In this document: piece after piece, positions 17,895-53,064 of the stretch
Numbering within the stretch: position 1 is the stretch's first letter
Layout: each line of letters begins with the position of its first letter
NCBI GenBank assembly: GCA_934129895.1
Contig: CAKOWY010000001.1
Span: 272,788-336,787 of the forward strand
Length of the DNA: 64,000 nucleotides
DNA from: an uncultured Clostridia bacterium
GTDB taxonomy: Bacteria > Bacillota > Clostridia > TANB77 > CAG-508
Reading direction: 5' to 3'
Translations under genes and position numbers: made by a program
The notes under the pieces: generated by a model
The model's database searches: none
Told to the model about the DNA's origin: nothing
What the model saw: only the letters and a program-made list of their open reading frames with translations

Positions 17895-18539
17895 TTATTG
17901 TAATGCTTTTATTTCTTCTCTTAATTCTGCTATTCTCCCTTTTCTACTTTTTATTTGTTCACTTATCCTTTCTATTTCAACCATAAAACAAACTTCATCT
18001 TGTGAGCTTTCGTAAAATTCTGCGTTTTTTTCAAAGAATATGTCTATAACTCTTCCTATATTTAAATCTTTTAAACCGTTATCATATACTAATCCACGTA
18101 CATTAGAATATTCAACCAACTGATAAAAAAAACAATATTTAGGTCCTTTGCACCTCTTTTTTAAGTATTGTTTGTCACAACCTACATTTTTTTTACCATA
18201 ATCACATTTTATTTCTTCTATGTTTATATATAAATCTAATGGATTACATATACGTGAATTTTTTCGCAAAACTTCGTCAAGAGATAATCTCATACTTGTT
18301 ATTCCTTCTTGCATTCCACAAGGAGGAATTAATAAAAGTTCCTGTTTATTTTCTTCATCTGCCAATCTCCATTCTATACTGCCATTTGTTTCCGGACATT
18401 TTAATTCCAAATTTTTATGTTGCTTTAAAATTTCATATAAACTTATCCTTGGCTCAATTTTAGAACAAAACGGACATAGAAAACTAGATATATCAAATGC
18501 CCTTATGAATACTCTTTCTGAATTAAGAATATCATTCAT
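17895..18539 (-). CDS. hypothetical Cys-rich protein with C-terminal coiled coil (paralogue of the next gene)
   Basis: MNDILNSERVFIRAFDISSFLCPFCSKI... is followed by further Cys pairs and a C-terminal RIAELREEIKALQ segment. It has an AAAGAGGA RBS, and its ATG overlaps the upstream gene's stop by 8 nt. Confidence 0.6.
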   Translation of the reverse strand: MNDILNSERVFIRAFDISSFLCPFCSKIEPRISLYEILKQHKNLELKCPETNGSIEWRLADEENKQELLLIPPCGMQEGITSMRLSLDEVLRKNSRICNPLDLYINIEEIKCDYGKKNVGCDKQYLKKRCKGPKYCFFYQLVEYSNVRGLVYDNGLKDLNIGRVIDIFFEKNAEFYESSQDEVCFMVEIERISEQIKSRKGRIAELREEIKALQ

Positions 18540-19341
18540 TATCTGAATCCTCTTTCATAAATATGATATTTCTCTTACTCGAATATTTTTTCATAGGTTG
18601 TATTATTGGTTGTTCTGTAGGAACTTTATCTTTTTGACTTTGATTAGATACCTTCTTTCTTTTGGTCGAAGTTGATGACTTTTTACTTTTTGGGCTTTTA
18701 GCAACACTAGTTTTTTGAATCTCCTCTTTTTGAACTTGTTTAGACTCATCTACTTGTGAATTGATCTTTTCTTTTTCTTGAGCTTCCTTTTTTAATATTG
18801 CTAATTGACTCTCTAATTCTTGTTCTTCTATCTTTAATCTTTCTTCCTCTTTTCTTAATCTTTCAAGATAAAAAGTAGTTGAACATTGTTTATATTCTTC
18901 TGGATCAAATTCAAATGCCAATTGTATTGTTCTTGGTGATTTACAATACTTTCGATTTGCACAATTGTATTTATCACATTTTAAAGCTTTAGGAATAAGA
19001 TATACTCTTGGTTCATCTGGTGCTTCTTTGATATCATATCCAGATTGATATACTGATAAACAACAATTTTTAAAGCAAATTTTTGCATAAATACATGGCA
19101 AAAATAAGCCTGCTCCTTCTGAATAAGCTAATTTTATTACTAGATAAACTCCAGCTTCATACTCCTCCTCTGAAATTTCATCACAACTCAAATAAATTTT
19201 AAATTCATTGTAACGATCTGAAATATAACGTGAACTGTACTGCCCTTCAATTGAACTTATTCTTGAATTCCAATCATGCCATTTTCCACAGTAAGGACAT
19301 AAAAATCGCTTGATTTTGCAATTCAATAAACTTATATTCAT
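18532..19341 (-). CDS. hypothetical Cys-rich protein with coiled coil and Lys/Ser-rich tail (paralogue of the previous gene)
   Basis: It most likely starts at the ATG at 19339-19341 (MNISLLNCKIKRFLCPYCGKW), which has a GGAGG RBS. The track start at 19407 is a TTG. It shares with its neighbour the MN..L....FLCP(Y/F)C(G/S)K N-terminus and the same domain order. Confidence 0.6.
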   Translation of the reverse strand: MNISLLNCKIKRFLCPYCGKWHDWNSRISSIEGQYSSRYISDRYNEFKIYLSCDEISEEEYEAGVYLVIKLAYSEGAGLFLPCIYAKICFKNCCLSVYQSGYDIKEAPDEPRVYLIPKALKCDKYNCANRKYCKSPRTIQLAFEFDPEEYKQCSTTFYLERLRKEEERLKIEEQELESQLAILKKEAQEKEKINSQVDESKQVQKEEIQKTSVAKSPKSKKSSTSTKRKKVSNQSQKDKVPTEQPIIQPMKKYSSKRNIIFMKEDSDNE

Positions 19342-19515
19342 TCTGCTTCCTCCATAACTAATATTTCTCATTTGTAAAGTATCATCTAAGCTACTTATCT
19401 CAGACAATTCTTACATTTTTTCAGCGCATGTTATATTACAATTTTGATATTTTGCAAATCTATTATGTTTATTCAAAAAATAAAGATAAGTTATAAAACT
19501 TTTGATTTTACTAAC

Positions 19516-20556
19516 TTATCTACTTTCATCTTTTTTTCCCATATTTTCTAATCTTTGTATCCAATGTTGATTTTCATCTTCCATCTGTATTCCAATTTTA
19601 AATGCTTCTTCTTCATCTCTAATTAAATCACTAGGATTATCTTTCTTTTTACTACAATTAAAACTATTATACATTTCTATAGCTAAACTTTTTAAATCTC
19701 CATATTGATTATTTTTATATTTTAAATGTTTTATATTTTCTCTTACATCTTCAAAAAGACATCTACTAGTATTTGTATGCTCTCTTTTGGTATATACTAA
19801 AAATTCAAATTCTGCTACACTAGATTTTTTAGATATTTTTAATCCTGTTTGATATATATGAAGAATGAAATTGGCTATACCTAAAAATTGTTGTATAGGT
19901 ATTATTTTTGAACTTGAATAAAATCTATATACATTTTTTTTATTTCTTCCATTAGCTTCTATTGTTCTAACAGCTATTATTGAAATATTCCTTCCTTTTT
20001 CTATAACTATTCCATCTTTACAAATATCCATAGGTCCTGATTTTCTTATCAAACTTGATACTTTGTTATTTGAAAATTCAAATTGCGTAACATATTTTTT
20101 TGATTCTAAAACAATATGCCCTATTTCATACCATAATCCATTACTAGAATAATCAAAAACGCTTTTTTTGCTATTTCCAAATGGAAGTGTTTGTATTGCT
20201 TTTTCAATTCTTTCTTCATTAACTTTCTTCCCAGATTCTTGAACTAACAGCATTTTTTCTAAATCTTCATCACTTAGTTTTTGTCCTAGAACTTTTTCTA
20301 AAATAGCACTATATATTTCAAGTTTTCTATTTAATACTTCATTCTTTTTAGCTAGTGCCCTAATTCTTGCTATTTCTAAATTTCTCTCATCAATTGATGC
20401 ATTTATTTCATTAATTTTTTGATTTATTTCTTGCTCCTTTTGTAGTGTTTCTTTTCTTACTTGTTCTTCCGCTTCTCTTCTCAACCTTTCAGAAATCGTC
20501 TCTTCACTTGACACTTGTTTAGAATCTACTTCAGGATAAATTGTTCTTTTTTTCAT
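19516..20556 (-). CDS. hypothetical protein (N-terminal coiled coil, unknown C-domain)
   Basis: An AAAGAGG RBS precedes the ATG. It lies 11 nt downstream of the previous gene's stop. I recognise no domain in it. Confidence 0.55.
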   Translation of the reverse strand: MKKRTIYPEVDSKQVSSEETISERLRREAEEQVRKETLQKEQEINQKINEINASIDERNLEIARIRALAKKNEVLNRKLEIYSAILEKVLGQKLSDEDLEKMLLVQESGKKVNEERIEKAIQTLPFGNSKKSVFDYSSNGLWYEIGHIVLESKKYVTQFEFSNNKVSSLIRKSGPMDICKDGIVIEKGRNISIIAVRTIEANGRNKKNVYRFYSSSKIIPIQQFLGIANFILHIYQTGLKISKKSSVAEFEFLVYTKREHTNTSRCLFEDVRENIKHLKYKNNQYGDLKSLAIEMYNSFNCSKKKDNPSDLIRDEEEAFKIGIQMEDENQHWIQRLENMGKKDESR

Positions 20557-21518: not shown

Positions 21519-21609
21519 TATTAAAATCTCTTTCCATAATTTTTTATTTTAGGCTTAATTGCCAGCTCAAAAGTAACATAATTATATAACAATAATATAA
21601 AATTGTCAA

Positions 21610-21653
21610 TAAAAAAGCTAAGAGCTACCACAAATCTGTGATAGCTCTTGCTT
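21610..21653 (-). terminator. Rho-independent terminator closing the island operon
   Basis: Imperfect 16-bp stem AAGCTAAGAGCTACCACA / TGTGATAGCTCTTGCTT with an AATC loop. It begins 1 nt after the TAA stop at 21655-21657 and is followed on the minus strand by TTTTTTATT. Confidence 0.6.
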
Positions 21654-21654
21654 T

Positions 21655-22614
21655 TTAGTCTAACGTATCTGCCTGTACGATATTAGCAGGTGTAAAATAT
21701 CTTGCAAATAAATTTCCACCTACTTCATATCCACCCATAGTTGCGTTTATTGCATTAAATTGTAACTCTCTCGAAGCCAGAGATTCAATGATAAAAATTA
21801 CATTTTCAGAAATTAACTTCATTATCATCTCCAATGTCTGAATTGTAAGGGGATTTGTACTAGTACAAATAACAAATACAAACTTAGTATTTGCACTGTA
21901 AAATCTTTGCATTTTTCCAATGATTTTTTTGAATGTTTCGTTCCTTTGACTTCGCATAGATATTGTATAGAGTCTTTTAAGTCCACTCTCCCAATAATTC
22001 ATATATTCATCACTGGGATCACTATAAAGCTCTTGAAGATATGTTAAAATCTCCCTTGCCTCATATTCTATATAACTATCTCTATAATATCCTACATGAT
22101 ATCTATCATCTTTTTCTATCTCATTCATTATAGTTGCTGCAATAAGATTATAGATATCATGTCCAGTGTTTGCAATGTCAACTCGATTGAATAAGACAAC
22201 ATCCTGATTTCTAATATCATATAAGGTTCTATCTACCAGGATATCGGCATTCATTCCAAATACCCCAATCAAACCAGTATTACATTTAGGTCTGTTTATG
22301 AGTGGCTGTACTTTAGCTGTAAGCTGATTTGATCTTCTTGCCGTTCTATCAGAACTTTCTACAGCTCTTGATGCAGTCATGGGAACTACTTCAGAATTTT
22401 CCCTTTGATTTCTGAAATCTTCTGATGATTGTTCATTTCTCCTCTCTTCTCTAGTTGCATAATTACTATTTTCCTGATAACTTTGATAAGATTCAGCATA
22501 ACTGTCTTGTCTTCTTGCTTCGTTTCTTATCTCAGTTTCTTCCTTTTTTGGACTATTTTGAGCAGTAATTTTCTGCCCAGTTTGTTCAAAATATATTTGG
22601 CGCCGTCTTGCCAT
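21655..22614 (-). CDS. hypothetical protein, last gene of island operon (about 100-aa polar disordered N-terminus + uncharacterised C-domain)
   Basis: Its ATG overlaps the upstream TAA (TAATG), and an AAAGGAG RBS is present. The N-terminus is rich in Q/E/R/S/N (QNSPKKEETEIRNEARRQDSYAESYQSYQENSNY...). The C-domain (GLIGVFGMNADILV...KFVFVICTSTNPL) is unassigned. Confidence 0.7.
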   Translation of the reverse strand: MARRRQIYFEQTGQKITAQNSPKKEETEIRNEARRQDSYAESYQSYQENSNYATREERRNEQSSEDFRNQRENSEVVPMTASRAVESSDRTARRSNQLTAKVQPLINRPKCNTGLIGVFGMNADILVDRTLYDIRNQDVVLFNRVDIANTGHDIYNLIAATIMNEIEKDDRYHVGYYRDSYIEYEAREILTYLQELYSDPSDEYMNYWESGLKRLYTISMRSQRNETFKKIIGKMQRFYSANTKFVFVICTSTNPLTIQTLEMIMKLISENVIFIIESLASRELQFNAINATMGGYEVGGNLFARYFTPANIVQADTLD

Positions 22615-24020
22615 TATTTTCTCCTTTCACATTGTGATAAGGAATTTTTCTCCAATAACAAACTCTTTGCCCTGTTTTTCACAGGATCTTTAAATTCGCC
22701 TCTTTCTATTATCTCATAAAACCATCTTTTTGCATCAGCCGTGTAAACATCCAGTACTTTTTTGGCTCTTTCTTGCTCGAATTGACTTCTTGCATTAGTA
22801 ATAACCAATATAACTTTTTCAAATTCTTTAACATACTGGAGTTTTTCTGCAGTATCTGTTCCTGCAATAAAAGCATGTTTTTGACGATAGCTTGCTTTTA
22901 TAATATTTTTAGGAAATTGCATTAAGGCATGACATGCCAAAAAATATTCTCCTAAAATACTTCCTTCAGTCATTTCTCTTTCAGGAGCAGGATAACATGT
23001 TGCAGAAAATATTTGTTCAATTGTCCTCATTCTCCTTTGCTTTACAGTTGCCTCAATCTGATTTGGAAGTTCTGCTGCTTTAGTTCCCTCTACAGGTTCA
23101 TAACTTGCAACTCCAATATCACTGAAATATCCTTTTTCGAGATATTGAACCAAACCTCTAAATTCAGATTCCGTTTCTCCAGGATATCCAACAATTACTT
23201 CTGTTGAAATAATCAAATCAGGACGCAGTCTTTTTAAAGCATTTATCTTTTTATCCACATCTTCAAATAGTGGACGATTCATGCTTTTTAAGATACTTGG
23301 TGAACTATGCTGTATATGCAACATAATTTCAACAATGTTTGCGTTTTGTCCAATGAGTTCAATCACTTCATCAGTTAAACCTGCCGGATGAAACCAACCA
23401 ATAACATATCTGCAATCAGGATAGCCTTTTACAATTCTTGTCATCAGTTCAGCAAATTTTCTTTTTCCATACAAATCAACACCATAATCAGATGTTTCTT
23501 GTGCACCTGTAATATAAATAGTCGATTCGCTTGGATACATATTGCTAACTTCTTGCAAAATGTCTTGCATGCTTTTACTATGATATTCACCATAAAATTG
23601 AGGATAAACACAATAAGAGCATCTATGATTACAACCAGTCGAAATAATAACTTTGTTTTGTGGAATCCATTGAACATTAATATTGGGTTTATTGAACTTT
23701 GCAAGTACTTCTTCAAAAGATTTTACCTTAATTGGTGCTTCTTCTTTTAACTCTTTCAGTTCTTCTTTGCAAAGTCTTTCCAAACACCCTGTAACGATAA
23801 CTTCAGCATCTTTTTTCTTATTAATGCAAACATCTGCAATAACCTGCATAGAATACAGCTTATTAGGACCAAAAGCACAGGTAAGAATGATTATACAATC
23901 AGCAATCGTATAATCATTTACTACTTCATACCCAACAGTACTTTTAACCCGATTTACCAGTTGATTTGCATTATCAATGTCCATGTGCATGTCATTACAG
24001 AGAATTACCGCAACTTTCAT
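22614..24020 (-). CDS. radical SAM methylthiotransferase-like enzyme (MiaB/RimO/MtaB-type architecture)
   Basis: The N-terminal MTTase-type domain has three Cys (ILCND, ILTCAF, VTGCLERLC). The radical-SAM CxxxCxxC motif is CNHRCSYC. A C-terminal extension of more than 100 aa follows. The ATG overlaps the upstream TAA, and a GGAGG RBS is present. Confidence 0.8.
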   Translation of the reverse strand: MKVAVILCNDMHMDIDNANQLVNRVKSTVGYEVVNDYTIADCIIILTCAFGPNKLYSMQVIADVCINKKKDAEVIVTGCLERLCKEELKELKEEAPIKVKSFEEVLAKFNKPNINVQWIPQNKVIISTGCNHRCSYCVYPQFYGEYHSKSMQDILQEVSNMYPSESTIYITGAQETSDYGVDLYGKRKFAELMTRIVKGYPDCRYVIGWFHPAGLTDEVIELIGQNANIVEIMLHIQHSSPSILKSMNRPLFEDVDKKINALKRLRPDLIISTEVIVGYPGETESEFRGLVQYLEKGYFSDIGVASYEPVEGTKAAELPNQIEATVKQRRMRTIEQIFSATCYPAPEREMTEGSILGEYFLACHALMQFPKNIIKASYRQKHAFIAGTDTAEKLQYVKEFEKVILVITNARSQFEQERAKKVLDVYTADAKRWFYEIIERGEFKDPVKNRAKSLLLEKNSLSQCERRK

Positions 24021-24604
24021 TAATATCCTCCTTCACGCACTTTCGTACGAGAATCTGTAGTTTTGGATTTTGTTTTGGTTTCCTGCTGATATTCTTTGGT
24101 GAACTCTCGATTTGCAACTTTACCAAGTGCATTTTCAAGTGCAAGATATTTTTCACATTTCTTGCCTTTGAGCCCTTTGGGTTCAAACTTTACTTCACCA
24201 TCTTCAGATACAGATACCATCATAAATCCACCACTAGAATCCTGGGGATCTCTAACCTTGTAGCTACCTCCTTCTTGTTTGCTCACACTCAAATGCATCT
24301 TTTTGGCAGTCTTTTTCATCATCTCAATCGCATAATTGCTCATGATTATCGAACCATTATAGCCAATATATCTGGTAACATGACCGTCCCAAAAATCAGC
24401 CGTAATGTTATAATTGCCTGTCATGCTCTTTTCAAGTGCACAATCATATATTCCTGGAAGTTTTACTACATTCTCCTTTAACTGTGCACCTCCATAAAAC
24501 CGACACATTCCTTCGTCAACCATGTTAAGTCCCATGTTCGCCAAAGCTGATCTTGCACACTCCAAATCTCGGATCTCGGTATAAATAGTTGTAAAATGAC
24601 TCAT
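24020..24604 (-). CDS. Ycf35/DUF1257-like protein with Lys/Thr/Glu-rich C-terminal tail
   Basis: The N-terminus MSHFTTIYTEIRDLECARSALANMGLNM matches, from recollection, the MSHF..I.T.I.D...L..AL.DLG start of plastid/cyanobacterial Ycf35 (DUF1257). A TAATG overlap and GGAGG RBS are present. Confidence 0.65.
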   Translation of the reverse strand: MSHFTTIYTEIRDLECARSALANMGLNMVDEGMCRFYGGAQLKENVVKLPGIYDCALEKSMTGNYNITADFWDGHVTRYIGYNGSIIMSNYAIEMMKKTAKKMHLSVSKQEGGSYKVRDPQDSSGGFMMVSVSEDGEVKFEPKGLKGKKCEKYLALENALGKVANREFTKEYQQETKTKSKTTDSRTKVREGGY

Positions 24605-26244
24605 TACTGATTTCCTCCTTCAAAATTGATTGTTCGACCAGTCTTTTTCTTTTTATTAGTAGTGCTTCCTTTGCTTTCTGCACTATCATCTGAATGAATA
24701 TTAGCCCAACGAATATTTTCTTTTTGTGCCCATTCTGTTAATGCTTCTACGGTTTCTTTCATGATTCCTTTAGATGCTGGTTGAAGTACTTCCATCTGAT
24801 TTAAAATATCGTTTGTATTCAATTCTCTTGCATTATCTGCAAAGGAATTAAACATTGCCGATATCACGGCTTCTTCGATTTCTGCACCTGTGAAACCATC
24901 AGATACCTCAGCCAATTTTTCAACATCAAAGCTTTGAGCATTACGCCCTTTCTTTTCAAGTTGAATACTTACAATTTCTTCTCTTTCTTTTAAATTAGGA
25001 AGACCGACAAAAAAGATTTCATCAAATCGTCCTTTTCTCAAAAGTTCAGGTGGAAGAGATGTAATATTATTGGCAGTTGCAATAACATAAACTGCAGATT
25101 CTTTTTCCTGCATCCATGTAAGAATACTTGCAAACATACGGGAAGATACTCCAGAATCGTTTCTACCACCTGCTCCAGCACCAGCTAAACCTTTTTCAAT
25201 CTCATCAATCCACAACACACAAGGTGACATGGCTTCTGCCGTCTGAAGGGCTTTTCTGGTATTGGCTTCTGTATCACCAACATAGCTTCCAAAAAGTTTT
25301 CCAAGATCACATTTAATGAGCGGAACACTCCAAGTATTTGCCAATGCTTTGGCTGCCAAGCTCTTTCCGCATCCAGGAATACCTACAAGCAATACTCCCT
25401 TAGGGTTAGGTAAACCATATTTTTTTGCCTTATCTGAATATGCCAGAATACGCTTCTGGGTATATTCCTTAAAGTTTTGCATTCCTCCCACTTTAGTAGA
25501 ATCATGATTGTTCCAAAACTCAAGCAAACCATCTTTACAAATTATTTGTGCCTTAACTTCCGAAACAATCTCTAAATCAAGAGCCCGCTTTTTTGAAAAA
25601 GACGTTGATATTGCATTTTCAGCCTGATTTAACGTCAATCCCAGTAAAATCTCTGCTGCCTTTTCTGTTATAGACGAAATCTTTTCAAGTTCACTTGCCT
25701 TCAAATTGTCCTTGAATCTTTCAACCATATCATTAATGAGCTCTACAAAATCTTCTTTTTTAGGGAGCTCTAAATCAATGGAAACTGTAGATTCTTCCCA
25801 ATCTTTAGGCACGTCAAATTGATTGCTAATAAAGATAAAACAACATCCAATTTCATTTGCTTTTTCAAATGCTTCTTTTGCTGCTCGCAAAACCAAAGGC
25901 TGATCAACAAAATGATGGAAATCAAGCATACATAAAATGTATTCTCCTTGCTCATCATTAAGTTTTAAGCCTTCAGTTAATGCTTCTTGAGGATCTGTGA
26001 CATCTGCGTTTTCTTCTACCAGGTAATAATCTTCCATGTCGATATAATTTTTGTCACCACGAATTTGGATTCTGGGATCAACAACCTCCATGATTCCCCT
26101 TGTACAAGACCAATAGTATACCCTTTTTTGATAATGCTGACCTGCTCTTAAACAATCTGCCAAGGCCCGGTTTTCTTCGGGTGTTTGCAGGATAACTGAT
26201 GAGTAACCTGCGCTGATACAACCAGAGATGGATAATTTACTCAT
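24604..26244 (-). CDS. Ycf46-family AAA+ ATPase
   Basis: It has Walker A (GIPGCGKS), Walker B (LWIDEIEK) and the Ycf46-like segments TWMQEKESAVYVIATANN and LLRKGRFDEIFFVGLP. The preferred start is the ATG at 26242-26244 (MSKLSISG), which has a GGAGG RBS. The track start at 26259 lacks an SD. Confidence 0.85.
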   Translation of the reverse strand: MSKLSISGCISAGYSSVILQTPEENRALADCLRAGQHYQKRVYYWSCTRGIMEVVDPRIQIRGDKNYIDMEDYYLVEENADVTDPQEALTEGLKLNDEQGEYILCMLDFHHFVDQPLVLRAAKEAFEKANEIGCCFIFISNQFDVPKDWEESTVSIDLELPKKEDFVELINDMVERFKDNLKASELEKISSITEKAAEILLGLTLNQAENAISTSFSKKRALDLEIVSEVKAQIICKDGLLEFWNNHDSTKVGGMQNFKEYTQKRILAYSDKAKKYGLPNPKGVLLVGIPGCGKSLAAKALANTWSVPLIKCDLGKLFGSYVGDTEANTRKALQTAEAMSPCVLWIDEIEKGLAGAGAGGRNDSGVSSRMFASILTWMQEKESAVYVIATANNITSLPPELLRKGRFDEIFFVGLPNLKEREEIVSIQLEKKGRNAQSFDVEKLAEVSDGFTGAEIEEAVISAMFNSFADNARELNTNDILNQMEVLQPASKGIMKETVEALTEWAQKENIRWANIHSDDSAESKGSTTNKKKKTGRTINFEGGNQ

Positions 26245-26333
26245 AGAATTTTCCTCCATTTTTTATTGTTTGTTATTGAAAAAACTTTGGCTACAAAATA
26301 GTTTTTTTATAACCAATAAATTTTTTCCGTGTA

Positions 26334-26362
26334 ATTATATCACATCCCTTAATTTATGTCAA
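26334..26362 (-). promoter_or_regulatory. consensus sigma-A promoter of the four-gene island operon
   Basis: On the minus strand it reads TTGACA (26357-26362) - 17 nt - TGATATAAT, with the -10 at 26334-26339. It is an extended -10 and lies about 85 nt upstream of the ATPase start. Confidence 0.5.
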
Positions 26363-26457: not shown

Positions 26458-27180
26458 TTAAAATCTTATCGGACCATCTCCAGAATCAACAATGATTATA
26501 AAATCAGTAATCTTATGTTCTACAAACCATCTTAAAATCTCTCGACTTTGCTCATCCACCTTATAATATCCTAATGCACAAAAAACTTTTGTGTCATATT
26601 GTAAAAAGGCCTTTTTCAGTGATTGTATTGCTTCTTCTATATTTTTAGCTTCTTCTCCTATTACTCTCCTTTGATATCTTTCTTTATAACTCATAGGGTA
26701 TTGATAATGAAAACCTAGATTTTGTGCACAATATTGCAAATTATACCTTTGTTCAACGATTTCGATATACCTTAAACGTGAATATGCTGTATCTTCGCAC
26801 CTACTATACACTGATACTAAGCTTTCTGCAATACGCCAAAAGATATTGGAAAAAGATTCCATAGAGATAAAACCCAAGAATACTGTTTGCAAAGAAAAAA
26901 TAGAATTCGATATTCTGGCTGTACTATCTCTAAATTTTTTTATTTCAGAATAAGCATTTTCTCCGTAAACATTTATTATATTCGTCTTAGGATTCTCTTC
27001 TCTAAATAATTGTGTTGCCACTTTTTCGAACCCGCGATCTCTTACTAATTGAATCCCCTCGTTTCTTTGAACTTTAGAGTTTTCTTCATTTGGTTCTTCT
27101 TCACTTTTTAAAAATACAAATTCGCTATCTTTGCGTACCAAGATTTCTCCATTGTTTTCTGCATAAATTTTCCGTCTCAT
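26458..27180 (-). CDS. hypothetical protein (first gene of island, own promoter and terminator)
   Basis: The ATG at 27178-27180 (MRRKIYAENNGE) has a GGAGG RBS, whereas the track start at 27201 is a TTG. I recognise no domain; the C-terminus ends ...ITDFIIIVDSGDGPIRF. Confidence 0.65.
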   Translation of the reverse strand: MRRKIYAENNGEILVRKDSEFVFLKSEEEPNEENSKVQRNEGIQLVRDRGFEKVATQLFREENPKTNIINVYGENAYSEIKKFRDSTARISNSIFSLQTVFLGFISMESFSNIFWRIAESLVSVYSRCEDTAYSRLRYIEIVEQRYNLQYCAQNLGFHYQYPMSYKERYQRRVIGEEAKNIEEAIQSLKKAFLQYDTKVFCALGYYKVDEQSREILRWFVEHKITDFIIIVDSGDGPIRF

Positions 27181-27263
27181 ACTGTACCTCCATGTTGTCA
27201 ATTATTCATTTTTTACATTCTGTTGAACTGTTTCAGAATCGTTTTTAAACAAAACTTACGTGT

Positions 27264-27292
27264 ATTATATCATTTTTGCAATTTTATGTCAA
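27264..27292 (-). promoter_or_regulatory. consensus sigma-A promoter of the 240-aa island gene (near-duplicate of 26334-26362)
   Basis: It reads TTGACA (27287-27292) - 17 nt - TGATATAAT, with the -10 at 27264-27269. The surrounding sequence cgtgtattatatcat...ttatgtcaatt closely matches the operon promoter. Confidence 0.45.
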
Positions 27293-33149: not shown

Positions 33150-35117
33150 TTAAAAATATCTTTTGTAACAAATATTTAAATCTATATTTCCAGTTATACC
33201 AGCAATTTTTCCTTTATCTGTATATTGCCACATATCATATCCTTTTGAATATTTAAATATATCATCTGGAAGTTGCCCATTACTTTCGCCATAATCTGCA
33301 ATCCATATATTATAATCTTCTGGTAATTTATTTATATCTAAATAATTTGCTAACCAATATGAATATGAGTATACTCCGACTTCATATCCAGCTGATTTCA
33401 TTGTATTGCAAAATGCTATAGTTATTTTAGTTATTGTTTCTTTATCTATATTTTTCTGTGTTTCGTCTTCTATATCAAAAAATATAGGTAATTCAAATTT
33501 TGTTTGATTACTATTTTTTAAATATTTTATTGTTTCTTCTGCTTCTTTTTTAGCTCCTTCAACATCTTTTGCATAAGAATATATGTAAGCTCCTAATGGA
33601 ATTTTTTTGTTTTTGGTTTCTTTATAATTTCTCTTAAATTGATCATCTTCTATAAATTTCTTTTGATCTTCACTATACCATCCTATTCTTGCTATCATAA
33701 AATCAATTTTTTTACTTGCAACAACTTTATTATAATCAATTTTATTTTGCCATTTTGATACATCTACTCCAATATAATATCTTTTATAATGTGGTACTAT
33801 TCTGATTTCTATTGCTTCTATTTTTAAATTTCGTCCTGTTGTACCAGCACTTTCACCATCTATATACCACTCTGTCCATCCTATATCTTGGACATGTACT
33901 CTATATTCTACAGTATATTCATCTAAATTTTCCAATTTTATTTTTATTGCTTCTATTTTTAGTCCTTTATTTAATATTCCTGCTTTTTCATCAGCATTTA
34001 CCCAGCTCATCCACCCTATATCCTGTACATGAACCATATATTTTATTTTTTCATTTTCTTTTGCATTTATTAATTCCATACTTATTGCTTCTAATTTTCT
34101 ATTTTGCCCTGTAGTACCTGCTGTTTCACCATTTTTTAGAATTTTGTTTTCTTCTGGTACATTTCCTTCAAGATAAGCATAATATTCAATTCCAATTTTA
34201 TCTGAATTATTATTTTCTTTTTCTATTATCATTATTTGTATTGCCTCTATTTTTTCAGTAGCTGATATTTTTCCAGCAATTGCACCATTTTCTACCCAAT
34301 TCATCCAACCTTCATTTTCAACATGAACTCTATATTTAACTGTATATTTATTGGTTCCTTCTATTTTTATTCTTATTCCAAATAATCTCAAATTTTTTCC
34401 TGTCGTTCCTGTTTGTTCTCCGTTTTTTACCCAATTTTGCCAACCAGCATTTTCTACATAAGTTTTATATTTTATATTTACTCCACTAGGTGCATTGTTT
34501 AATTTTATTTTCAATGCTTCTGTTTTTAAATTTTCCCCAATTGTTCCTGAAATATCATATTCTGTTTTTTCTGCTTGCCAACCTATGTCTTGTACATGAG
34601 AACTATAAGTTACAGAAATATTGTTATTATTTTTTTTAGAAACAATTCTAATTTCTATTGCTTCTATTTTTAAGCCATCACCTAAATTTCCTGAAATTTT
34701 GCCATCGCTTACCCATTCTGTCCAACCAATATCTTGTACATGTGTCCTATATTCAATAGAATATTCACTTGTGTTTTCTAACCAAATTTTAATTGCTTCC
34801 ATTCTTAAATTTTTTCCTGTTGTTCCTGTTTGTTCTCCATTAGAAACTGTTTTTTGCCATCCTTTTCCTTGAATATAAGTTGTATATTTTATATTTATTC
34901 CATTACTATTTTTTAGTTTTATATTTAATGCTTCAACTTTTAAATTTTTTCCTGTTGTCCCTGCTTGTTTACCTTCAGTAACATATTCTTGCCATCCTAT
35001 ATCTTGTACATGTGTACGATATTCTACTTCTGGCTTTACTGAAGCTGCCCTTACATCTACTTTTAATACAAAAATATATAATATAATTAATAATATTATT
35101 CCAATTGTTTTTTTCAT
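33150..35117 (-). CDS. secreted ChW-repeat protein with C-terminal GH25 muramidase domain
   Basis: A signal peptide is followed by about 9 repeats of YxxHVQDIGWxxW...AGTTGxxLxxEAIxIxL (ChW-type). The C-terminal GVDVSKWQ...DIED...WIADYG segment is a GH25 lysozyme. Confidence 0.8.
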   Translation of the reverse strand: MKKTIGIILLIILYIFVLKVDVRAASVKPEVEYRTHVQDIGWQEYVTEGKQAGTTGKNLKVEALNIKLKNSNGINIKYTTYIQGKGWQKTVSNGEQTGTTGKNLRMEAIKIWLENTSEYSIEYRTHVQDIGWTEWVSDGKISGNLGDGLKIEAIEIRIVSKKNNNNISVTYSSHVQDIGWQAEKTEYDISGTIGENLKTEALKIKLNNAPSGVNIKYKTYVENAGWQNWVKNGEQTGTTGKNLRLFGIRIKIEGTNKYTVKYRVHVENEGWMNWVENGAIAGKISATEKIEAIQIMIIEKENNNSDKIGIEYYAYLEGNVPEENKILKNGETAGTTGQNRKLEAISMELINAKENEKIKYMVHVQDIGWMSWVNADEKAGILNKGLKIEAIKIKLENLDEYTVEYRVHVQDIGWTEWYIDGESAGTTGRNLKIEAIEIRIVPHYKRYYIGVDVSKWQNKIDYNKVVASKKIDFMIARIGWYSEDQKKFIEDDQFKRNYKETKNKKIPLGAYIYSYAKDVEGAKKEAEETIKYLKNSNQTKFELPIFFDIEDETQKNIDKETITKITIAFCNTMKSAGYEVGVYSYSYWLANYLDINKLPEDYNIWIADYGESNGQLPDDIFKYSKGYDMWQYTDKGKIAGITGNIDLNICYKRYF

Positions 35118-35199
35118 TTTATCACTTCCCTTAGTATATATTATAAACGCCAAAAAAGGATTTTTCAACCATTATTAAAAAATCCTTTCCTAGTAATTT

Positions 35200-50530: not shown

Positions 50531-53026
50531 TCATTTTATTGATTTTAGCATATCTAATGTAGCTGTTATATACCTATTAGAAAATTTCTTATCAACAACA
50601 GATTGATGATCTGTTACTCCTGCTTTTGGTAATTCTATTAATGCTGATTTTGCTGCACCTGCTGATGATCCAAGATATGTTCTTGCCCAGTTTACTAAAT
50701 ATCCTGTTCCATATCTTCCTACACCTGATTTATTATTTTCCGGAAATTGTTTTTCATAATATGAGCATATTTTAACATCTCCAATTAATTGTTGAGTCCA
50801 TCCATGTAAGTCAACTAATATTGTTTGACCATTTTGAGATTTATTCTTTATTAAGAAATCCCTCAAAGCTTTTGCTTCATACGCTTGAAATCCCTTTTCT
50901 CCATTATAATTTCTATCTGATGTATATCTAGTATAATCTTCTCCCACTTGCCAGCATCTATTCATATCAATTCCTTTATTTTGAGGTGCTTCACTGTATA
51001 AAGTTGTTCTTCCTGGTCCATTATTTGTCCATCCATTTTTTAATCCATCTTGATTTACACCAGGGAAAACATATATTGTCCAATTATTATAAATATCATA
51101 GTCTTTATCTGTCATAAGTTTATTATAAAAGTCATTTGCTATATTAACTAATTCTTTACCATCTTTATCCCAAATATCTTCATATCCATGTAAAGCAAAT
51201 ACTGCAAAAAATACATTTTTTCCTTTGCCATATTTTAAATATGGTAATTCACTTCCACCTTTATTTGCAATTTTTTGACCAGATACACCATAAGTTCCTT
51301 CTTCTCGTTCTATTTTAGGACAAATTTCAGTATCAACCATTTGTTGCTCTAGTATTTTACCATCTTCACTTACAACTTGGACTTTTAAATTTACCTTTTC
51401 TAATTTATAAGTACTAAAATCTACAATCATTTCATATCCTGGTTTTGGATTTTTGTCTTGTCCTCCATATCCTTTTATTGTTTCTAATACATCTGCTCTT
51501 TCTGTTCTTTCTAATTTTATATTTTCAATCTTATCATTGACCATTAATTGTATTTTGGCATTTTTTATATCTGTCATTAGCCAGCCTTTTATCTTATATT
51601 GTTCCTGACCTATTTTATCTGGAATCATTGTGTCAACACACATTTTTAATTTATTTTTTATTTTAGGTACAATTTTTATTTCTATCGCTTCTACTTTAAG
51701 ATTTTTACCTGTTGTTCCTGATATTTCTCCATCATTTGCCCATTCTTGCCATCCTCTGTCTTGAATATAAGTCCTATATGTTATTGAATATTGTTCTGTA
51801 CCTTCTAATTTTATTTGAATTGCTTCTACTTTTAAGTTTTTACCTGTTGTTCCTGATTGTTCTCCTGCATTTTTCCAAGTTTTTTCCCAGCCTAAATCTT
51901 GTACATGTGTTTTATAAAGAATTTTTACTCCTTCTGGAATGTTTCTTCCGACTATTTTAATTGCTTCTATCTTTAATTTTTTTCCTGTAACTCCTGCTGT
52001 ATTTCCTTGCTCTTTATAATTTTGCCATCCTATATCTTGCACATGTGCTGAATATCTTACAAAAAACTCATTACTTATCTTCTTTTTTATGGCTTTTATT
52101 TCTATTGCTTCTATTCTTTTATTTTTGCCTGTTGTTCCCGCTTCTTCGCCATCTTTTTTCCAGCTCTGCCATCCTTCTCCTTGTACAAATACTCTATATG
52201 TAATTGAATATTCATCAGAATACTCATCTCCAACTTTTATTTTTATTGCTTCTACTTTAAGATTTTTTCCTGTTGTTCCTGATTGTTCTCCTGAATTTTT
52301 CCAAGTTTTTTCCCAACCTAAATCTTGTACATGTGACTGATATTTTATATTTATGTTCTTTTTTCCATCTTTTAGTTCTATTCTTACGGCTTCGATTTTT
52401 AATCCTTTATTTGCTATTCCAGATGTTTCTCCATCACAATAATATTTTTGCCATCCTATATCTTGTACATGTGATTGATATAACACTGTTGTTTCTGTTT
52501 TAGAAACAATTCTAATTTGAATTGCTTCCATTTTTAAACCTTTTCCAACAGCACCTGCAATTTCTTCATCTTTTTTCCATTCCATCCATCCATAATTTTC
52601 TAGATGAGTTCTATATTCTACTGAATAATTTTCTGTTCCTGTTAATCGGATTTTTATTGCTTCCATTATTTTGTTTTTACCTGTTGTTCCCGCTTCTTCA
52701 CCATTCTTTTTCCATTCTTGCCAACCAATATCTTTAACATATACTTGATATTCAATATTTACATTTTTAGGAGCATCTACTAGTTTTATTTTTATTGCTT
52801 CATTTTTTAGATTTTTACCTGTTGTTCCTGATTCTTGACCATCAATTTTAGAAAATTCTTTTTCCCATCCTAAGTCTTGTACATGTGAATTATATGCAAC
52901 TGAAAATTTTTCTTCGATTTTTTCATTTTTCTTCTCCACTTCAGCTGCACTAACTGTTTGAACAAATGATAATAGCAAAATAACACAACAACTTAATACT
53001 CCAATAACTATTTTTAAATTTCTCAT
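50531..53026 (-). CDS. secreted ChW-repeat protein with C-terminal M14-type zinc carboxypeptidase-like domain (peptidoglycan peptidase candidate)
   Basis: A signal peptide (start at the ATG at 53024-53026) is followed by about 10 ChW-type repeats. The C-domain has the HxxE (FALHGYEDIW), NRCW and DLHGW motifs expected for M14 zinc ligands. Confidence 0.7.
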   Translation of the reverse strand: MRNLKIVIGVLSCCVILLLSFVQTVSAAEVEKKNEKIEEKFSVAYNSHVQDLGWEKEFSKIDGQESGTTGKNLKNEAIKIKLVDAPKNVNIEYQVYVKDIGWQEWKKNGEEAGTTGKNKIMEAIKIRLTGTENYSVEYRTHLENYGWMEWKKDEEIAGAVGKGLKMEAIQIRIVSKTETTVLYQSHVQDIGWQKYYCDGETSGIANKGLKIEAVRIELKDGKKNINIKYQSHVQDLGWEKTWKNSGEQSGTTGKNLKVEAIKIKVGDEYSDEYSITYRVFVQGEGWQSWKKDGEEAGTTGKNKRIEAIEIKAIKKKISNEFFVRYSAHVQDIGWQNYKEQGNTAGVTGKKLKIEAIKIVGRNIPEGVKILYKTHVQDLGWEKTWKNAGEQSGTTGKNLKVEAIQIKLEGTEQYSITYRTYIQDRGWQEWANDGEISGTTGKNLKVEAIEIKIVPKIKNKLKMCVDTMIPDKIGQEQYKIKGWLMTDIKNAKIQLMVNDKIENIKLERTERADVLETIKGYGGQDKNPKPGYEMIVDFSTYKLEKVNLKVQVVSEDGKILEQQMVDTEICPKIEREEGTYGVSGQKIANKGGSELPYLKYGKGKNVFFAVFALHGYEDIWDKDGKELVNIANDFYNKLMTDKDYDIYNNWTIYVFPGVNQDGLKNGWTNNGPGRTTLYSEAPQNKGIDMNRCWQVGEDYTRYTSDRNYNGEKGFQAYEAKALRDFLIKNKSQNGQTILVDLHGWTQQLIGDVKICSYYEKQFPENNKSGVGRYGTGYLVNWARTYLGSSAGAAKSALIELPKAGVTDHQSVVDKKFSNRYITATLDMLKSIK
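51820..51909. repeat. intragenic direct repeat copy A (ChW-module coding)
   Basis: About 90 nt that are roughly 95% identical to 52246-52335 (ttgcttctac...tcctgttgttcctgattgttctcctg.atttttccaagttttttccca.cctaaatcttgtacatgtg). Confidence 0.55.
52246..52335. repeat. intragenic direct repeat copy B (ChW-module coding)
   Basis: It matches 51820-51909. The same core ttttttcctgttgttcctg(a/t)ttgttctcc also recurs in the GH25 gene (for example near 34380 and 34810). Confidence 0.55.
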
Positions 53027-53064
53027 AAAAATCAATCCTTTTCTTTTTTCTTTTGAGACCATTA

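Follow-up and report, generated by a model that had tools for sequence, protein, structure and literature searches.

The window analysed here is a 64,000-nucleotide stretch of the genome of an uncultured Clostridia bacterium (GenBank assembly GCA_934129895.1, contig CAKOWY010000001.1, positions 272,788 to 336,787), and the subject of this work is a cassette of coupled genes within it that includes a radical S-adenosylmethionine (SAM) enzyme of the methylthiotransferase (MTTase) type. Coordinates are window positions, and every window feature for which they are given lies on the minus strand, as do almost all genes of the window. The core of the cassette consists of a Ycf46-like AAA+ ATPase (551 aa, 24604-26259), a DUF1257-DUF2997 fusion protein (194 aa, 24020-24604), the radical-SAM enzyme (468 aa, ATG start, 22614-24020) and a 319-aa accessory protein (21655-22614), in this order. 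All three junctions (AAA/DUF, DUF/radical-SAM and radical-SAM/319-aa gene) are TAATG overlaps with a GGAGG-like ribosome-binding site within the preceding gene. These overlaps tie the four genes into one unit, and the translational coupling of the radical-SAM gene to AAA+ and DUF1257-type genes, pointed out in the initial annotation, is thereby borne out. The locus is split by three consensus promoters, each a 12/12 match. The first, a sigma-A-type promoter (TTGACA-17-TATAAT with a TG extension, 26334-26362), lies 5' of the ATPase gene, after the hairpin that trails the preceding gene; the second (21581-21609) lies ahead of a downstream accessory unit and the third (27264-27292) ahead of an upstream 247-aa open reading frame (ORF). 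The four core genes are bracketed by the first promoter and by an intrinsic-terminator-like hairpin, with a 13-bp stem and a T run, directly 3' of the 319-aa gene (21620-21649). The GC content of the AAA-DUF-radical-SAM core is 33-37% (positions 22001-26000) compared with ~26% in the flanking chromosome, a difference that could reflect either a foreign origin or strong constraint at the protein level.

MTTases are three-domain enzymes, made up of an MTTase domain, a radical-SAM domain and a TRAM domain, and their sole known substrates are A37 of tRNA and Asp88 of the ribosomal protein S12 (PMC10702137). The radical-SAM enzyme of the cassette has the first two of these domains and lacks the third. 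Its N-terminal UPF0004/MTTase domain (residues 1-100, 23721-24020; PF00919, 32.9 bits against a cut-off of 27) carries three cysteines for an auxiliary cluster, C8 in ILCND, C48 in ILTCAF and C79 in VTGCLERLC, and the radical-SAM motif CNHRCSYC (CxxxCxxC; C130, C134 and C137; 23610-23633) follows in a protein that scores 67.8 bits on the Pfam Radical_SAM model (cut-off 29.5). TRAM gave no Pfam match. In its place, residues 338-468 (22617-23009) make up a family-specific, all-helical C-terminal domain; in an AlphaFold (AF2) model of the enzyme, with a mean local confidence (pLDDT) of 88.3 and a global fold score (pTM) of 0.86, residues ~340-468 are confident helices and no beta-barrel is seen. 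The three-cysteine domain, the radical-SAM motif and a C-terminal extension of about 130 residues devoid of TRAM had all been read from the letters in the initial annotation, and each of these readings holds, the extension being helical in the model that had been suggested as a check.

When the C-terminal domain was compared with 1.84 billion representative proteins (phmmer), nine matches were obtained, all of them members of the same family or fragments of such members, and homology of the domain to another family was rejected on this ground. In an alignment of 29 diverse homologues, every sequence has C8, C130, C134 and C137, and 28 have both C48 and C79. Since both [4Fe-4S] sites are kept, MTTase-type sulfur insertion by the enzyme is probable. 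We conclude that TRAM is swapped for a private helical domain in this family. More than 100 full-length homologues are known, with 42-98% identity and nearly all from gut or rumen metagenomes, and the only name they bear in the records is 'radical SAM protein [Clostridia bacterium]'. The setting differs from that of a maturase of ribosomally synthesised and post-translationally modified peptides: no SPASM or RRE domain was matched with Pfam or NCBIfam models, and the neighbours are proteins of 180-470 aa and not short precursors, except for one conserved 61-aa helical protein.

The enzyme falls below the cut-off (251-357 bits) of every curated NCBIfam MTTase model, and all of the alignments end near residue 340. 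The scores are 208.8 bits on the RimO model (TIGR01125, cut-off 356.95), 205 bits on the MiaB/RimO family model (TIGR00089, cut-off 251), 156.7 bits on the MtaB model (TIGR01579) and 137.9 bits on the MiaB model (TIGR01574), the last two with cut-offs of ~355-357. A search of the PDB with the family profile gave RimO of Thermotoga maritima (4jc0) at an E-value of 1.4e-54 and MiaB (7mjv) at 7e-28, with only profile positions 21-335 aligned, and the MTTase motifs QHxSxxILxxMxR and GFPGET align with RimO. A neighbour-joining tree was computed from 398 shared columns with 100 bootstraps, using a reference set checked by NCBIfam (three RimO, four MiaB and one MtaB, no e-MtaB) in which the members score 347-528 bits on the TIGR00089 model. 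The family was monophyletic in 100/100 bootstraps, as was RimO, and the two were joined in 96/100, with the family sister to the RimO clade and outside it. RimO is thus the closest relative by sequence, structure and tree. A sister relationship is supported but provisional, and on the same sequence comparisons the family is not part of RimO, MiaB or MtaB.

These data bear directly on whether the enzyme is a diverged housekeeping RimO, MiaB or MtaB that came to lie in the operon by chance. RimO is its nearest known relative, as this explanation would have it, but the explanation is largely refuted and can hardly be correct. In addition to the missed equivalog cut-offs and the missing TRAM domain, the clade stands apart from genuine RimO of gut Firmicutes, which reaches 502-523 bits with the RimO model, and the AAA/DUF gene order is kept in ~30 species, at different chromosomal sites and with overlapping stop and start codons. 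Furthermore, a search of all fetched loci with the family hidden Markov model revealed further MTTase genes on three contigs. They encode canonical MiaB (529-532 bits against a cut-off of 355 for the MiaB equivalog, with the TRAM region included) and lie 4-8 kb upstream of the cassette (L004:66-1503, L009:85-1647 and L015:2410-3825, given as locus and position). Since canonical MiaB coexists with the cassette in three related genomes, the radical-SAM enzyme is not the housekeeping enzyme; inside the 64-kb window no second MTTase was found. The comparisons called for in the initial annotation, a phylogeny and a look for canonical enzymes, the latter made in the window and in related genomes, show the enzyme in a clade of its own: it is no orthologue of MiaB or MtaB with the usual TRAM domain, and its position in the operon is not fortuitous. 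The miaB gene of L004 is split over two reading frames and is followed by mutS, and the nearness of miaB to the cassette probably reflects conserved synteny, not a functional link. Phage-encoded homologues of the enzyme were also considered and rejected: the tblastn matches in GenBank 'phage' records are bacterial rimO, miaB or mtaB on mislabelled bacterial contigs (for example Acinetobacter phage MD-2021a, Staphylococcus phage SA 1306 Kay and 'Bacteriophage sp.' fecal scaffolds), and these records served only as MTTase reference sequences.

A scan of 185,579 species-level genomes yielded 30 loci, all of them in metagenome-assembled genomes (MAGs) of uncultured Clostridia. The sources are human, mouse, roe-deer and other guts as well as the rumen, and Clostridium sp. 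CAG:245 is among the hosts. The order AAA, DUF1257-DUF2997, radical-SAM is found in every locus with enough flank except L030, in which AAA and DUF homologues were not found at the locus; accessory genes are at times inserted between the DUF and radical-SAM genes. The flanks consist of differing housekeeping genes, i.e. the cassette occupies different chromosomal sites across genomes, and the core is conserved at 45-65% identity over the whole lineage. We conclude that the AAA-DUF-radical-SAM linkage is conserved and obligatory, not fortuitous. On conspecific metagenome contigs with 99% identity to the window, one of them 459 kb long, the same layout lies between the mreB and PFOR (pyruvate:ferredoxin oxidoreductase) genes.

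The window itself is a piece of low-GC (~26%) bacterial chromosome. Its markers, DnaE, a Mur ligase, PFOR, cell-wall proteins with ChW repeats and an MreB homologue, identify it as Clostridial and not as phage or plasmid. A megablast search with 20 kb of the window against GenBank phages gave no match, and the radical-SAM family has no member among IMG/VR viral contigs; on these two null results and the Clostridial gene content, a phage or mobile origin of the window was rejected.

The ATPase has an acidic N-domain and a disordered basic C-terminal tail (Pfam AAA, 113 bits). It matches the phage family phrog_8638 over its full length (residues 12-535, E-value 1.6e-126), as well as such classical-clade models as Cdc48, FtsH and PAN. 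Walker A (GIPGCGKS), Walker B (LWIDEIEK), a pore loop (SYVGD) and a second region of homology with arginine fingers are all in place, and both Walker motifs and the arginines are conserved among 23 orthologues, so the ATPase looks catalytically competent from its sequence. Its partner had been described in the initial annotation as a DUF1257 protein. This needs amending in one respect: the protein is of DUF1257 type and coupled by TAATG, but it is fused to DUF2997 (PF11211, 41.1 bits, cut-off 24.1), and the DUF1257 score of the window protein (PF06868, 18.5 bits) falls just under the cut-off of 22.2. Precomputed PF06868 matches exist for many members of its family. Family members share an invariant N-terminus MSHF, an exposed loop LPGxYD and an invariant C150, and C34 is present in at least 90% of them. 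The C-terminal tail is clade-specific and ends either in R-x-K-[VIL]-[RK]-x-G-G-Y or in [HR]-L-x-E-W-S; in the clade with the former end, the ATPase tail also has GG near its end (GGNQ, GGDNE, GGNKE). As for phages, two neighbours of AAA genes, gp64 of RcKickapoo and the ORF that follows the AAA gene of Javan368, were considered as DUF1257/DUF2997 proteins and failed in hhalign comparisons, and tblastn gave no match to the DUF protein in phages.

In the model of the DUF protein (pLDDT 81.6), the DUF1257 part adopts a KA1/TBP-like alpha+beta fold, for which the top matches in a fold search are the protein- or lipid-binding KA1 domains of kinases. The fold is a general one for binding and thus cannot tell a protein partner from an RNA partner. 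The fold matters for a reading in which the enzyme is a tRNA or rRNA methylthiotransferase, with the RNA recognised in trans by the DUF protein and/or by a basic C-terminal domain and with the ATPase remodelling a ribonucleoprotein. Such a reading would agree with the isoelectric points (pI) of the C-terminal domain (9.1) and the DUF protein (8.7) of the window, and with the fact that all characterised MTTases other than RimO act on tRNA A37 (PMC10702137). The basicity of the C-terminal domain, however, is not conserved (pI 5.6-9.7 across the family), the family groups with RimO and not with MiaB or MtaB, the fold is generic with its best matches as given above, classical-clade AAA+ ATPases of such architecture act on proteins, and related genomes already have a canonical MiaB. 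We therefore consider an RNA substrate unlikely.

The conserved surface of the DUF protein raises a different explanation, namely that the enzyme services the ATPase and DUF proteins themselves, as a donor or acceptor of sulfur or Fe-S clusters, or as the modifier of a residue in the DUF protein or in the ATPase tail. C150 is invariant and C34 nearly so, and the exposed loop, VKLPGxYD in its longer form, loosely resembles the S12 loop VKDLPGVRY. Genomic links have also been reported for relatives of the two partners: in cyanobacteria the gene fed7, which encodes a ferredoxin, has the DUF2997 and DUF1257 (ycf35) genes as neighbours (PMC4284462), and in freshwater red algae plastid ycf35 and ycf46 are absent along with the iron-related pbsA and ycf34 (PMC5940233). 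Both links are merely correlative, and the literature searched on Ycf46, Ycf35 and DUF2997 offers no mechanism. Moreover, the loop and the cysteines are equally conserved in DUF relatives that have no radical-SAM enzyme and are generic to the DUF family; the loop was rejected as an S12-like target for this reason, as its conservation lends no specific support to that role. A service function of this kind appears very unlikely.

A terminal peptide shared by the ATPase tail and by unrelated accessory families is newly recognised here. When the ORFs neighbouring the cassette were clustered into families, three mutually unrelated families, C2 (which includes the 319-aa protein), C11 and C8, were found to start with a basic peptide, R-x-I/L-x-F/T/P, after which comes a linker that is charged and of low complexity, as in MARRRQIYFE, MKKRTIYPE and MPRQIIPEE. 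The peptide, referred to below as the tag, has the general form R-x-I/V/L-x-F/T/P and is located right at one end of the neighbours, either the N- or the C-terminus. It lies within the first 25 residues in 31/33 members of C2, C11 and C8 compared with 18/219 unrelated flank genes; these raw counts overstate the effect, since members of a family are not independent, and it is the convergence of three families that matters. Each ATPase ends in a disordered tail with the same peptide, and the variable positions of the tail track those of the accessory tags at the same locus. In the window, the ATPase tail GRTINFEGGNQ stands beside accessory tags RQIYF, RTIYP, RKIYA and RNIIF. At L020 and L021 both tail and accessory tag read RVIRF; at L031 the tail RRRIIPVSEEE is accompanied by MPRQIIPIG and MPQRQIIPME, at L012 AARIKRAS by RRIKRARD, and at L011 RKIIT by RKIIF and RKIVT. 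The tag was seen across the window and loci L001-L034.

In the window, the tag is found as R-T-I-N-F in the C-terminal tail of the ATPase (...KKKKTGRTINFEGGNQ; 24622-24636), as R-Q-I-Y-F at the N-terminus of the 319-aa protein (22588-22602), as R-T-I-Y-P at the N-terminus of a 346-aa protein (20533-20547), as R-N-I-I-F at the C-terminus of a 291-aa Cys-rich protein (18559-18573) and as R-K-I-Y-A in the upstream 247-aa ORF (27160-27174). Five of the seven window ORFs with the motif near a terminus fall within 18.5-27.2 kb. The radical-SAM enzyme has a conserved C-terminal end of its own, ...RAKSLLL, and 71 of 100 full-length homologues end in [RK]-x-[ILV]-[ILV]-[LIFVYM], 0-7 residues from the C-terminus; more speculatively, this end may act in docking and belong to one class with the tag. 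One MAG, RUG770, holds two complete paralogous cassettes (L025 on OMPX01000082 and L028 on OMPX01000074) with almost identical ATPase tail peptides, TRKIIRGGD and TRKIVRGGE, which indicates that there is no obvious insulation between the two.

Gene content beyond the AAA-DUF-radical-SAM triad varies by locus, the variable neighbours being cytosolic proteins. Accessory family C2 is present in 16 of the 24 representative loci clustered and often in two copies; its window member, the last gene of the core operon, combines the N-terminal tag MARRRQIYFE with a disordered linker of ~100 aa and an uncharacterised alpha/beta domain. Downstream of the core, the window encodes a small helical protein of 61 aa (family C10, 21333-21518; 44-62% identity to partners in related cassettes), a 216-aa coiled-coil protein with a conserved C-terminal end E-Y/F-G/M-E-L-E (C5, 20568-21218) and the 346-aa protein, in which the tag MKKRTIYPE precedes a long coiled coil and a conserved globular C-terminal domain (C11, 19516-20556). 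C5, C10 and C11 are each found at four loci in addition to the window. Across the C5 family the extreme C-terminus reads E-[YF]-G-E-L-E, or [KR]-[DEN]-F-E in another clade, a second and acidic terminal motif. The remaining families are C6 (~420 aa, seven loci), C8 (~190 aa, between the DUF and radical-SAM genes, four loci), C14 (~390 aa, three loci) and C4 (arrays of BspA-type leucine-rich repeat (LRR) proteins, three loci). C2, C11, C6, C8, C14 and the Cys-rich proteins gave nothing significant in Pfam, PHROGs, PADLOC or PDB profiles, and C4 is the sole accessory family that could be identified. No transmembrane-like segment was found among the cassette proteins of the window.

In one sub-clade, two to five BspA-type LRR_5 proteins flank the radical-SAM gene (L024:9119-14679, L025:4268-8528 and L028:4266-9107). 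Signal peptides are missing from these proteins, all of which end in FKSF-x-G-[VT]-[IV]-R-x-N-[LI]-I-A-x-K-K-K. With the sequence G-V-I-R-x-N-L-I-A-x-K-K-K, this end has the spacing R-x-x-L, unlike the N-terminal tags, and was treated as related to the tag and not as identical with it.

Two Cys-rich accessory proteins are encoded at the end of the locus, one of 291 aa with a K/S-rich disordered tail ending ...SKRNIIFMKEDSDNE (18532-19407) and one of 214 aa (17895-18539). Homologues of both genes come after the C2 gene in L006 and L007. In the conspecific contigs of 99% identity, the pair, which has CPYC/CPFC motifs, is swapped for several shorter ORFs (the region 17895-19407 corresponds to L038:15263-16717 and L039:10983-12311), suggesting strain-level variation or decay at this end of the locus. 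Upstream of the core, the 247-aa ORF (26458-27201; 240 aa in the conspecific contigs) reads MRRKIYAEN from Met8 and, judged by this peptide, is a probable additional tagged client found in this species only. Elsewhere in the window, two large proteins (33150-35168 and 50531-53062) have nine ChW repeats each; one also bears a fused GH25 lysozyme domain, the other a fused M14 carboxypeptidase domain. Cell-wall enzymes of this sort are typical of Clostridia, and the two have no relation to the cassette.

A profile search recovered 134 relatives of the DUF protein, the most distant of which belong to AAA-DUF modules without a radical-SAM gene on phage- or prophage-like contigs. One such module (L047:5547-8218) lies on a contig with RNase H and a MYG1-like exonuclease, and another (L048:5166-8206) on a contig with an integrase, an S24 repressor and Bro-N; in a third (L049:2950-4335), DUF1257 and DUF2997 are separate genes and no ATPase was called. 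A terminal peptide of the same type is found on the ATPase tail in L047 and L048 and on a neighbour in all three, paired as ...RRKIRM with ...RRKVRV and as ...ARVIRR with ...RKLRVVRI; in L049 only the neighbour carries it (...RRSIEV). The presence of tags in these modules indicates that the tag system belongs to the AAA-DUF module. From these comparisons, the radical-SAM enzyme is seen as a clade-specific add-on, recruited to the module in one Clostridial lineage. The DUF proteins of the distant group (P0244, P0225, P0241, P0235 and P0238) have a conserved end, ...[FL]-C-G.

The variability of the accessory genes, which are multi-copy and locus-specific, and the phage-like contexts of the simpler modules would fit a conflict system, either an anti-phage defence or a phage-derived counter-measure, in which tagged proteins serve as sensors or effectors and the radical-SAM enzyme disables a target such as the ribosome, a tRNA or, in the manner of viperin, a nucleotide. 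The BspA-type LRR arrays that lack signal peptides, the presence of two cassettes in one MAG, the strain-to-strain variation of the Cys-rich genes, the abundance of the ATPase family in phages (phrog_8638; 147 phage records) and a weak, generic similarity of the ATPase to IetA/IteA point in the same direction. On the other hand, the radical-SAM family is absent from the IMG/VR viral contigs and GenBank phages searched, PADLOC matches neither the enzyme nor the DUF and accessory proteins, the flanks are housekeeping genes and neither defence islands nor mobile elements, the consensus promoter looks constitutive, and the core is conserved through the lineage. We regard a conflict function as fairly unlikely.

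We favour a reading in which the AAA-DUF module is a hub for proteins. The radical-SAM enzyme would be the third, translationally coupled subunit of the widespread Ycf46-like AAA+/DUF1257-DUF2997 module, and the module would recruit variable clients through the R-x-I/V/L-x-F/T/P peptide, placed at the very N- or C-terminus of a client beside a disordered linker. Candidate receptors are the acidic N-domain of the ATPase (pI 4.5, net charge -21; the tags are basic), by analogy with cofactors of p97 and ClpX, or the KA1-like DUF protein. The ATPase would engage or unfold tagged clients, or the hub proteins themselves, and the radical-SAM enzyme would add a methylthio or thio group to a side chain of a protein, in the way that RimO modifies Asp88 of S12. 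That the tag addresses clients to a common receptor and that the enzyme acts on the protein of a client or of the hub in a RimO-like manner is a possibility we put somewhat short of even. The linkage of the enzyme with an AAA+ ATPase and an adaptor-like DUF protein suggests, short of proof, a new protein-modification system, and the coupling of a TRAM-less sister clade of RimO to a protein unfoldase makes the enzyme a candidate for a new substrate class. The complete scheme, a new modification and remodelling system in which a tag-recruiting AAA-DUF hub with interchangeable clients works with a RimO-derived enzyme that methylthiolates protein side chains, is put forward only tentatively, as it is rather doubtful in all its parts together.

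Several observations weigh against this proposal. In the tag, R and I/L alone are constant, and neither a conserved Asp nor another residue that would obviously lend itself to modification is present. The tag system is also found in the simpler AAA-DUF modules that have no radical-SAM enzyme and so does not depend on it. A short form of the enzyme (368-372 aa) recurs in the family, without the C-terminal helical domain and with the same neighbours. In most ATPase orthologues, the pore loop, [Y/L/I]-V-G, has Leu or Ile in place of the aromatic residue. One homologue, P0116, is the sole exception to the conservation of the auxiliary-cluster cysteines, with His and Asp at the second and third positions and the radical-SAM motif kept; it may be a degenerate member of the family. 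The KA1-like fold is also found in the RNA-binding modules of METTL16 and TUT1, which would suit an RNA substrate. Finally, the placement beside RimO is provisional because the reference set is small and lacks e-MtaB.

The enzyme represents a real, conserved and previously undescribed MTTase branch inside an uncharacterised, apparently peptide-addressed AAA+ module. As a TRAM-less family sister to RimO, it is a concrete and directly testable candidate for a new substrate class, and if the proposal is true, an MTTase substrate beyond tRNA A37 and S12 Asp88 would be added to those known. The proposal would also provide the first mechanistic handle on Ycf35, Ycf46 and DUF2997 of cyanobacteria, plastids and phages, and the co-varying terminal peptide yields the testable hypothesis that the Ycf46/Ycf35/DUF2997 module is a peptide-addressed hub. 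Since the hosts are abundant uncultured Clostridia of gut and rumen, any function, cellular or defensive, would be relevant to this lineage and not universal.

No description of an MTTase combined with an AAA ATPase or with DUF1257/DUF2997 was found in the literature searched. In PADLOC-DB v2, only the AAA domain matches, generically, to IetA/TRIP13 models, and the radical-SAM enzyme, the DUF protein and the 319-aa and 247-aa accessory proteins have no match; the remark in the initial annotation that the combination is not known from described defence systems is thus confirmed for these sources. Among characterised enzymes, RimO (TIGR01125; PDB 4jc0) shares with the radical-SAM enzyme the three-cysteine UPF0004 domain, the CxxxCxxC core and the motifs QHxSxxILxxMxR and GFPGET. 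It differs in carrying TRAM, through which it binds S12, where the radical-SAM enzyme has a helical domain of ~130 aa (and its short forms nothing), in standing alone, without AAA+ and DUF1257-DUF2997 genes in one operon, and in its clade, the radical-SAM enzyme reaching 208.8 bits against the RimO cut-off of 357. MiaB and MtaB (TIGR01574 and TIGR01579; PDB 7mjv) are more distant (138-157 bits), and the radical-SAM enzyme lacks TRAM in this comparison as well. The partners of the enzyme belong to the same families as Ycf46 and Ycf35 with DUF2997 in cyanobacteria and plastids and as phrog_8638, but in the cassette DUF1257 and DUF2997 are fused, a radical-SAM enzyme has joined and tagged accessory proteins are added. 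A parallel to the tag exists in the cofactor motifs of p97/Cdc48 (VBM, VIM and SHP) and in the XB tail of SspB, which binds the ClpX N-domain; these are short peptides that address unrelated proteins to the N-domain of an AAA+ ATPase. The VBM of p97 cofactors, Arg-rich and hydrophobic, resembles MARRRQIYF by analogy only: the p97 and ClpX motifs have no sequence homology to the tag, and in the cassette it is the tail of the ATPase itself that also carries the motif.

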